The position numbers are program-made. From a virus (Duplodnaviria > Heunggongvirae > Uroviricota > Caudoviricetes), in IMG/VR virus record IMGVR_UViG_2703718819_000007: a stretch of DNA of 64,000 nt; one strand, 5' to 3'. Below, piece by piece: positions 18,001 through 21,000 of this stretch. The number at the start of each line of letters is the position of its first letter. Position 1 is the first letter of the stretch.

Positions 18001-21000
18001 AGCTTGCTGGAATAAATTTCAATCTTACCGGAAGGTGTTTTAAGTGGATTTGCCTCGGGGTCGTCACGAAATGCTTTGTAGGCGACAAAATGACCATTGG
18101 GATCTTTACGCTTATAGATACCCATTTTTTTCAGTTCGTCGTAAGACGGTAACGCCGGATCTTTGGCAAGCATTTTGGCGTACAGATGTTGTAACCATTG
18201 TTCCTGCGTGCGACCTTCAGTGAACTTTTGATAGACGTCAGGTCCAAGACGTTTCGCGACTTCACTCAGGATCCAGTAAATCGGTTTGCGTTCGAATTTT
18301 TCGCTGGTGACAGGCTGGAGGAAAATGAGATATCCCATGTTACCGGCGTAGTCGTTAGGAATAATATCTTCCTGCTCAACGGTCATCAGGTCTGGCAGCA
18401 GAATGTCGGCATATTTTGCCGATGAGGTCATAAAGTTTTCGATGACCACAATCATTTCGCATTTCGATTCGTCCTGCAGAATTTCATGCGTTTTGTTGAT
18501 GTCAGAATGCTGATTAACGAGGGTATTTCCCGCGTAGTTCCAGATGGACTCCACTGTCAGACGGATGGACGGACTTGAAGTAGTTGACTCAACGCTACTT
18601 AAGGTCCTGATATGACTGACATTAACCATGACAATACTGTATATCCATCCAGTTCTTTCTCTGGGTCTCCCTATCTGTATCAGCAAGTCTACACCTCAAG
18701 TCCTGACACAAGGCTGACACAAATCAACCTACTCGGCGTGGCTTGCTCGCTACTTGCTAAGCCTCAGTTAGTCCGTAGAGCCAATGGTCGATATACTATC
18801 CGCTTCAGACTCAAGGGACAGACCATCCCGTTTCTTTCAGTATCGACCCGAAGCACAGACAGGAGAGTAGCCACAATGCGTCAGAGAGAGCTTGCAGCCA
18901 CAGCTAAGTCCTTCATGTTGGATAGGCCTGATGTCTCGCTACAGGAGCTTACAGAGCACCTCCGGTCTATGGCTGAGCAGTTCCTGACAGACGCTAGTGA
19001 CGATTACTGGAATGGACTTGAGGTCGCTACTTTGGTGGACGAGAAGTCCAACCTGAAGGAGCTAGCCGCTACGCAAGCCTTAAGTCTGGACCAGCAGAAG
19101 GGCATAAGGTTAGCGCTTGAAGTCCTGACCGCAGCACAGCAGAGGGTAGACACTGGTGATACCTCTGGTCTGATTAAGCTGATTGATGATAATAACCATA
19201 CTGATTACTCAACTATAGGCGACTCTACGTCAATTCTGAAGAATGAGCAGGGGGATAGACCAGCAGTTTTCACACAGGAGCCCCAACCTGAGGTCACTAT
19301 CGCTGACCAACCAGCTATCTGTAGTTTTTCTGAGCTAGTGTCCTCGCTGCTGGCTGAGAAGGTCCAGACCCTGAAGTCATCCAGCTACAAGGACCTGTCG
19401 TCCTCACTGAATACCGTCTCTCGGTTCTTACCTGAAGACATGGACCTGATGTCCCGCTCTGAGTGGCTGGCTGTCAGGGACGCTATGCTGGCTTCTGAGG
19501 TGAGACCGTCGACGATTAACAAGCTGCTGACTAAGGCGAAGATGTGTCTTGACTACGGTCTGATGAATGGGCAACTTGAGGGCCGCAACCCTATTGAACG
19601 GATGAAGCTGACCAAGGATATCGACTCCAAGCGCAGAGCGTTCACAGACGAGGAGCTGGAGAGACTTCTGGTCCGTGTTGAGGCTGAGTATCAGTTCACA
19701 CGACACACGGCTCACACGACCTCTGAGGCCCGTAGATGGGCGTCTCTGGTGTCTGTAGTTACTGGCGCTCGGTCTGCTGAGGTCTGCCACCTGACTAAAC
19801 GTGACATTGTAACCTTAGACAATGGACTGGTCTGTATCGACATCAACGAAGATGGGGACGGTAAGTCTGTGAAGAACAAGCATTCAGTCCGACTTGTGCC
19901 GTTGACCGATGGGGCCTGTGGTCTTGACCTGAAGTCCTTCCTCGAATGGGTAGACATGCAGCCTGACGAGGGTCCTCTCTTCGGGATGACTCCAAGCGCA
20001 TACTCTAGCTGGTTTAACTCTAGGGTCCTGACTGAGGCCCTAGGAGACTCTCAGGATGTCTCTCTCCACAGTCTGAGGCATTGGCTGGCGACCCGCATGA
20101 AAGAGCGTGGAGTCAATCTGGTGGATGCTCAGGGCATCTTAGGCCATAGCAGTCAGTCCATTACGTATGACCTGTACGGGAAAGGACATGCAGTCCAGAG
20201 ACTGGCTGAGGTGCTGAAGACAGCTTTACTTTAAGTAGGAAGACCCAAGGTGGAGACCATATACGGCTTGATGGTTGAGACCTTGGGTCACTGAAGTCTG
20301 ACTGAAGTTAGGGAGGGTGATAATAATCATAATCCCTCCTGACTATAGGCCCACTGGTTCGCCTTCGGCTGTCCGACTCTAAGTCTGTCTGTGGTCTTAT
20401 TTAAACTGCGTCCTAAACTCCAGTCCCTCCAAATTCCTATGGTCTCCTCTTGACATTCCTGTTTAACTGTGAGTCGCCTCTGGTCTCTCTTTATATATAC
20501 TTCCTTAATTCCTGAGGCGTCTTTAGTCCTTGACATTCTGTCCAACCTGTGAGTCACATCCGGTCCTCCCTCTTTATATTTACTTCCTTAATTCCTAGGG
20601 TCGCCTTAATCCTTGACATCCAGTCCAGCCTGTGAGTCACATCCTGTCGCGCTACTGTATGCATCACCAGTGGTGGACTTGATTATCACTATAGGGGAAC
20701 CAACTAATTCAACGACAGGAGATACTCTATGGCACGACCAATCGCAACTCACGACAACACGTTCACCAAAGCCTACTTGCAGCAGCACTGCGGGGACCTG
20801 CTGTCATTCGATGGTCAGGGTGACTTGAGTGGCTGGCTGGATGATGTCCTTACTGGTGCTGGTCGCCTGAGCGAATCAATGGCAAGCAATACCAAGCCTG
20901 TCAGCCCATACTTGATTCTGACCCAACTACTAACGCACGACACATTAACTGTAAGCGCTGTGCAGGAGTCCCTGAGCCGTAAGCGTGTTGCCTTGGGTGA

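Follow-up and report, generated by a model that had tools for sequence, protein, structure and literature searches.

Putative arm-type integrase sites at both ends of a 6.7-kb integrative element in ynfE, a possible satellite of T7-like phages

The stretch of 64,000 nucleotides from the IMG/VR record IMGVR_UViG_2703718819_000007, referred to below as the window, was analysed with regard to a small integrative element and the short direct repeats located near both of its ends. The content of the window is that of the ynfF-ynfE-ynfD-ynfC-speG region of Escherichia coli, read on the minus strand. The ynfE gene is interrupted by an element of 6,711 bp (18547–25257), with the 3' part of the gene at 17520–18546 and the 5' part at 25247–26657, both on the minus strand. 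The element is bounded by two exact copies of AGTTCCAGATG on the plus strand, the left core (attL) at 18536–18546, which is identical to the attB site of ynfE, and the right core (attR) at 25247–25257; the 11-bp core reported in the earlier note at both ends was thus found exactly. When the two flanks were joined with one core, 600 nt proved to be 100% identical to intact ynfE of many E. coli genomes, and the cores therefore delimit a precise site-specific insertion of 6,711 bp. Empty sites matching the joined flanks are common. The element contains 10 open reading frames (ORFs) within 6.7 kb, and only the integrase and a gp7.3-like protein among them are recognisable. The element has an integrase and att sites, and it lacks a complete complement of genes for virion, lysis and replication functions.

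The octamer TGACACAA occurs exactly five times in the window (at 18704, 18715, 25159, 25170 and 25182), always on the plus strand, and all five copies fall within the two arms of the element, spaced 11–12 bp apart. Two of them form the left-arm pair TGACACAAGGCTGACACAAA (18704–18723), regarded as two putative arm-type sites 11 bp apart, and the other three form the right-arm triplet (25159–25191), which is non-coding and conserved and likewise contains putative arm-type sites. The 20-mer TGACACAAGGCTGACACAAA is identical in both arms, at 18704–18723 and 25159–25178. The earlier note had described repeats of one orientation at both islet ends, 158 bp inside the left core and 56 bp inside the right one, and these statements were correct: the left core is separated from the nearest TGACACAA copy by 157 nt, and on the right 57 nt separate the last octamer, which ends at 25189, from the core (56 if the count starts at 25191). 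The number of copies in the whole window is unremarkable (5 observed, 2.87 expected; 18 of 100 shuffles reached 5). When the two 260-nt arms were shuffled with preservation of dinucleotides, none of 5,000 shuffles gave a shared 8-mer with at least four copies, the observed number being five. The arm motif is multi-copy on both arms (three plus two) and is unrelated to the core.

The left pair was found within the reading frame of the integrase. This tyrosine integrase (18612–20234, plus strand; 540 aa; PF00589, 1.7e-14; phrog_1, 4.7e-43) consists of an N-terminal extension (residues 1–46), a DUF6538-type N-domain (about residues 47–135) and a catalytic domain in which all catalytic residues (R387, K421, H486, R489, H512 and Y522) are present and show little or no variation in the family alignment. 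The ratio of non-synonymous to synonymous substitution rates (dN/dS) over the whole gene is 0.12–0.19, and the integrase is intact and under purifying selection, as would be expected of a functional enzyme. In most relatives, the ATG equivalent to that at 18612 is the sole in-frame start upstream of the conserved N-terminal strands, and indels right after the repeats come in multiples of three. It follows that the left pair is translated (codons 31–37) and does not belong to an intergenic arm. The 46-codon extension is missing from homologous integrases, and homologues from a library of 1.8 billion proteins align from about residue 44–56 of the window integrase. In comparisons with divergent relatives, the extension showed a dN/dS of up to 1.2 and a synonymous rate (dS) below that of the rest of the gene; the peptide context of the left pair is poorly conserved, whereas the DNA is conserved. 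The lowered dS and the raised dN/dS of the extension thus indicate a constraint on the DNA and not on the peptide. The N-domain is characterised across the homologues by the signature xGxYxxRxR...SVSxRTxDRxxA, and DUF6538, a Pfam family of integrase N-terminal domains, is matched by 7 of 17 homologues. Modeling of the N-domain using AlphaFold2 led to a beta-beta-beta-alpha-alpha arrangement with a predicted local distance difference test (pLDDT) score of about 70–84. A search of viral contigs for two further members of the integrase family found none.

Related DNA was revealed in 313 of 5,426 complete E. coli genomes. In nine E. coli relatives (L001–L009) the element occupies ynfE at the same core, and the repeats show little or no variation: the left pair is invariant, and the middle right copy reads TGGCACAA in some of the nine. 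The homologous ynfE site is also occupied in Citrobacter, Kluyvera, Leclercia, Shigella and Enterobacter. In the divergent relatives L011 (integrase 79% identical), L014 (Kluyvera) and L020, the surrounding arm DNA is unalignable and the repeats are kept; besides the repeats, TTGACTCAAYG next to them and a few other blocks persist. The left and right clusters evolve in concert, as the two arms share the spacer AAGG in the window element and AAAG in L011. It was also observed that many copies of the element are broken by ISCro1, IS3, IS421 or ISEc12 (H1, H4, H15–H19, H22 and H23; L015 and L019) and that the integrase of Shigella flexneri is truncated at residue 359.

Two sister families allow the repeats to be compared with the integrase, the cargo and the signals of phage type that are described below. 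The glyU family (L010 and L021–L024) comprises elements of about 6.4–6.5 kb inserted at the 3' end of the tRNA-Gly gene glyU and is widespread in E. coli, O26:H11 included. Its cargo is close to that of the window element (57-aa ORF up to 98% identical, 331-aa ORF 80–92%), and the promoter type and the mimic of a phage terminal-repeat start are common to both. The glyU-type integrase is 31% identical to the window integrase. The glyU elements lack TGACACAA and contain repeats of the TCACTGTAACCA type, two on each arm and in one orientation, at +72/+84 and −75/−63. The third family, located at another site, is represented by L029, a metagenome contig of 6,780 nt (Ga0308166_1009015). Its core is different and 15 bp long (CAGCGACAACGTCAA), its promoters are of the T7 type (GCGACTCACTATAGGGA) and not of the Kayfunavirus type, and its arms are unlike the concatemer junction of the Kayfunavirus phage EcoDS1. 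The L029 integrase is 38% identical to that of the window overall and 54% identical in the N-domain. Repeats of TGNCACAA, of the TG(T/C/A)CACA type, are found in L029 at +170/+182 (two copies) and at −101/−90/−78 (three copies, the third of which is TGATACAA), followed by TTGACTTGA, and these positions nearly match the ynfE-type layout of +168/+179 and −88/−77/−65. Since a new integrase comes with a new repeat in the glyU family and a related N-domain comes with the same repeat in L029, the repeats follow the integrase, as expected of arm-type sites; the repeat motif tracks the integrase N-domain and not the cargo or the type of helper phage.

The clustering of the repeats, their conservation as a footprint and their co-variation with the integrase allow us to assume, with moderate confidence, that the tyrosine integrase encoded by the element uses the TGACACAA repeats as its arm-type binding sites. 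The attP of the excised circle would contain, in this order, sites at −88, −77 and −65, then TTGACTCAATGC, the core AGTTCCAGATG, TTGACTCAACGC, the start codon of int and sites at +168 and +179, the last two falling inside the first codons of int; the predicted junction sequence is CTTCAAGTCCTTGAAGTTCCAGATGGACTCCACTG. The integrase would engage the core through its catalytic and core-binding domains, with strand exchange somewhere within AGTTCCAGATG, and the N-terminal beta-beta-beta-alpha domain (about residues 47–135) would bind the repeats, which lie one helical turn apart. The bridging of arms and core would then produce an intasome in the fashion of lambda-type integrases. The arm sites would lie within a mimic of phage ends, whose periodic units may have given rise to them. 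Integrase binding at the repeats, the site of strand exchange and present competence for excision are inferred.

One of the closest known systems is phage lambda, in which the heterobivalent tyrosine integrase Int acts on an attP with the arm-type sites P1, P2 and P'1–3. Like lambda, the element has a short identical attP/attB core, a second motif on both arms with copies about one helical turn apart, and an extra small integrase N-domain that precedes the core-binding and catalytic domains. Unlike in lambda, the N-domain is of the DUF6538 type and not Arm-DNA-bind_1, no consensus for integration host factor (IHF) and no xis gene were found, two P' sites lie inside the int frame, the target is the middle of a protein-coding gene that is inactivated, and the arms double as a mimic of the phage repeat.

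A number of results limit the assignment of the repeats to the integrase. The predicted N-domain shows the expected beta-beta-beta-alpha order, but its structural comparison gave no significant match to known arm-binding domains. The IHF consensus WATCAANNNNTTR was absent within ±300 bp of the core, and no Xis or AlpA family match was found among the ORFs of the element; IHF sites and Xis or other recombination directionality factors are not universal in the lambda-type integrase family. The attP-specific junction is absent from public viral and metagenome contig collections. The co-variation argument covers three integrase families only. In addition, the right triplet aligns with 11-nt periodic, GAC-containing units of the phage terminal repeat, and the glyU-type repeats look like the end of the EcoDS1 terminal repeat. 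The arm-type reading of the earlier note is the best supported and is retained in a qualified form, limited by the alignment to phage units and by the N-domain comparison. The further claim of that note, that the islet can still be excised, is plausible in view of an undamaged integrase that is under selection, undamaged cores and arms and the use of this site in several genera. On the other side, the analysis turned up neither a recognisable excision factor nor an attP junction. The element-sized contigs L010, L011 and L026 were checked for circular permutation and all were chromosomal pieces, and no virion-derived or circular copy of the element was found in the phage, viral and metagenome records searched.

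The second group of features concerns T7-like phages of the genus Kayfunavirus. A promoter matrix was built from the 11 annotated promoters of EcoDS1, and two sites similar to Kayfunavirus-type phage RNA-polymerase promoters were found on the plus strand of the element, namely at 20677–20699 (21.5 bits), upstream of a 122-aa ORF, and at 21106–21128 (CCTAAACTATCACTATAGGGAAG; 33.4 bits). The latter outscores every EcoDS1 promoter's own score, is identical to EcoDS1 phiOR at 22 of 22 positions and matches multi-copy sequences in 238 phage records, mostly of Escherichia and Salmonella phages of about 39–40 kb. Both sites point along the genes of the element, with predicted +1 positions at 20694 and 21123, the rest of the 64-kb window gave no score above 14.3 bits, and every relative contains two or three such sites. 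The sequence GGTGATAATAATCATAATCCCTCC (20316–20339) is 92% identical to EcoDS1 positions 38634–38657, located just downstream of phiOR in that phage. A unit of about 82 bp with CTTGACAT occurs three times in tandem at 20449–20648, just upstream of the first phage-type promoter. The copies are 65–84% identical and are reminiscent of the host promoters, also three in tandem, at the left ends of T7-like genomes, but good −10 elements were not seen.

The element also encodes a 79-aa homologue of gp7.3 (24372–24611, plus strand; phrog_1320, 1.8e-11), which is 39% identical to EcoDS1 gp7.3 (E 4e-14). In the T7 group, gp7.3 is a virion protein with a role in assembly and adsorption. The full-length gp7.3-like ORF is present in only some relatives.

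The right arm (25016–25185, plus strand) was found to mimic the concatemer junction of Kayfunavirus. Its Smith-Waterman score against L028 was 128, compared with 38 ± 6.4 for shuffles (z 14), and the alignment spans from about 42 nt before the phage terminal repeat to about 123 nt into it. Against EcoDS1, in which the terminal repeat is annotated, z was 7.1; it was 9.7 for the variant L003 and 8.3 for the right arm of the glyU type, and control segments of element and host DNA gave background scores only. L028 (PQ520054.1) is 82–97% identical to EcoDS1 in gene 19, the terminal repeat and the early genes, and this record, labelled 'Enterococcus phage IME_EF3, partial genome', appears to be a mislabelled Kayfunavirus fragment. 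In the left arm, the block TTCTCTGGGTCTCCCTATCTGTATC...AAGTCTACACCTC (18657–18697, plus strand) resembles the end of the phage terminal repeat, with weaker support than in the right arm: the block scored 32, with a maximum of 31 in 300 shuffles, and the whole left arm gave z 3.7 and a score equal to the best of 500 shuffles. The core of the left block is invariant across relatives. The mimic positions TCTAATACATT and CCCTATCTGTATC would be the ends of packaged DNA. In a multiple alignment, the right TGACACAA units face TGACCCAAGG/TGACCAGAAG/TGACTGCTGG of L028 and AGACGTTAGG/CGACGATAGG of EcoDS1. No hit came from a BLAST search of 50,697 phage records with the entire element, and the promoters and the junction mimic were revealed only by short-motif and Smith-Waterman comparisons. 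A 20-mer in common between the right arm and MT837217.1, a 7.4-kb record named 'Bacteriophage sp.', was rejected as a chance match.

These similarities permit a different explanation of the repeats, according to which they belong to a mimic of the helper phage's terminal repeat and serve as cis signals for T7-like replication, concatemer processing or packaging and not for the integrase; they would flank the core simply because the att core splits a terminal-repeat-like sequence. The alignment of the right arm, triplet included, with the junctions of L028 and EcoDS1 agrees with this, as do the phage-repeat units that face the three TGACACAA units, the left-arm block similar to a terminal-repeat end just before the left pair, and other arm motifs typical of the phage repeat, for example CTCAAGTC. 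However, the glyU elements share the cargo, the promoter type and the terminal-repeat-start mimic with the window element and yet have another repeat on both arms. Conversely, L029 keeps the TGNCACAA repeat at the same distances despite another promoter type and arms unrelated to the EcoDS1 junction. The module TGACACAA...TGACACAA was found in none of the 50,697 phage records, and the phage units that face the triplet are not conserved between phages. Because the same signals occur with another repeat in the glyU family and the converse is seen in L029, the clusters evolve in concert and none of the phage records has the module, this explanation was ranked second, and we consider it unlikely. 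A dual role, or the recruitment of phage-repeat units as arm sites, is possible.

It is improbable that the repeats are operators or iterons for another protein of the element, a regulator or replication initiator that would act on int or on replication. The left pair does overlap the 5' end of int, which is a typical place for autoregulation, and direct repeats 11 bp apart resemble iterons. The candidate protein is encoded by a 52-aa ORF (24608–24766), in which an AP2-like pattern (GGRYQATIW...LAEAEQW) was noticed in our own reading of the sequence. However, this ORF is present in only four ynfE-type loci and the repeats are present in all, and it was rejected as the repeat binder since most relatives are without it. 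Apart from the integrase, only the 57-, 163- and 331-aa proteins are common to all families, and they show no co-variation with the repeat type; the 57-aa proteins of the window and of a glyU-type element are 98% identical. No replication initiator or repressor family was found among the proteins of the element. That the repeats have no present function, as a relic of duplication or with the left pair as a by-product of coding for PDTRLTQ, is hardly credible, for although the left pair is translated and the window-wide 8-mer count is not significant alone, the right triplet is conserved outside any coding sequence, the DNA of the left pair is conserved and its peptide context poorly so, the clustering is far beyond chance and the repeats are retained in a family with 38% integrase identity.

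Besides the arm-type repeats, the arms contain other conserved motifs on the plus strand. The motif TTGACTCAA(CGC) is located at 18584–18592 in the left arm and is conserved in relatives; its right copy, TTGACTCAA(TGC), is located at 25195–25203, immediately 3' of the repeat triplet, and its L029 equivalent is TTGACTTGA. TTGACTCAA was tried as a −35 element and dropped, as no −10 element accompanies it. No excess of sigma-70 promoters was found, and the 66 bp upstream of int are without a convincing promoter. A copy of TCAAGTCC adjoins the right core (25235–25242), with more copies at 25102–25109 and 18696–18703 and an inverted copy at 18571–18578. AGTCC...GGACT on either side of the core could be a core-type dyad, a possible assignment of the core sites.

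The cargo common to the ynfE, glyU and L029 families consists of a 57-aa ORF (22534–22707) and two genes on the plus strand (22804–24366) encoding proteins of 163 aa (22804–23295) and 331 aa (23371–24366). Comparison of the cargo with PDB, Pfam, PHROG, NCBIfam and PADLOC gave no match except for the gp7.3-like ORF, and no Rfam family was found. A reading of the 331- and 163-aa ORFs as a capsid and scaffold module found no support, as no relation to EcoDS1 gp10A or gp9 was detectable. The AlphaFold2 model of the 331-aa protein was unusable (pLDDT 40).

The two phage-type promoters, the gp7.3 homologue and the terminal-repeat and junction mimic make a small satellite of virulent T7-like (Kayfunavirus) phages the preferred interpretation of the element. 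Six units of 6,711 bp make 40.3 kb, and Kayfunavirus genomes are 39.2–40.7 kb long. A phage promoter and a concatemer junction suffice for T7 to replicate and package a plasmid; in work attributed to Chung and Hinkle (J Mol Biol, 1990), plasmids with a T7 replication origin, that is, a phage promoter, and a concatemer junction were reportedly packaged into transducing particles. The element carries both cis components, the phage-type promoters and the junction-like segment. It shares these two cis elements with the plasmids and, unlike those laboratory constructs, is natural, integrative and widespread in Enterobacteriaceae.

In a wider interpretation, to which we give about an even chance, the ynfE, glyU and L029 types would be undescribed satellites, about 6.5 kb long, of virulent T7-like coliphages. 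They would be activated by the helper polymerase acting on their copies of its promoters, and their attP would double as a mimic of the terminal repeat and junction, with arm sites and packaging signals on the same DNA. In the ynfE type, the mimic would be split by integration and rebuilt on excision, so that it would be contiguous only after excision, and six units (40.3 kb) would fill the helper capsid. The T7-type promoters of the third family suggest different helper phages for different families.

No description of a satellite of T7-like phages was found in the literature searched. Elements of the same family in the same target have been mapped: Eco892.7.ynfE and Sfl13.8.ynfE were identified by TIGER, and ynfE is among the genes interrupted by an integrative element of about 7–8 kb (Mageeney et al. 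2020, PMC7192596). In the lists and tables of mapped elements in that source, ynfE stands among the candidates for regulated gene integrity. Among described kinds of element, PICMIs and VEIMEs come nearest. The PICMIs are small satellites of vibriophages with very few genes and no recognisable capsid-remodelling genes, which depend on virulent phages, are packaged as concatemers, lie next to fis and have three core proteins of their own for excision and replication (Barcia-Cruz et al. 2024, PMC10803314). The present element is like them a small integrative element of similar size with few genes, six units of which make about one Kayfunavirus genome length. In contrast to the PICMIs, it targets ynfE or glyU and not fis, and its core consists of int and the 57-, 163- and 331-aa proteins without a family match. 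The marine VEIMEs bear an integrase, have sizes of about 5–17 kb and form head-to-tail concatemers matching the length of the helper genome (Eppley et al. 2022, PMC9618062). The element is likewise integrase-bearing and falls into the class of about 5–17 kb. Unlike the VEIMEs, which were defined from marine virion DNA, it has an enterobacterial host, T7-group promoters and a junction mimic.

The att architecture itself is ordinary, and the more interesting context is an apparently undescribed satellite family with mimicry of helper ends. Should the repeats be arm sites, this common enterobacterial element would have an att module defined well enough for a direct test. Excision would restore the selenate/tellurate reductase gene ynfE, which would make the insertion a candidate for a reversible gene switch. 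The T7-like phages are strictly virulent model phages and candidates for phage therapy. If the satellite interpretation is true, the element would represent a new way to parasitise, or to defend against, T7-like phages and would offer natural parts for T7-based transduction tools.

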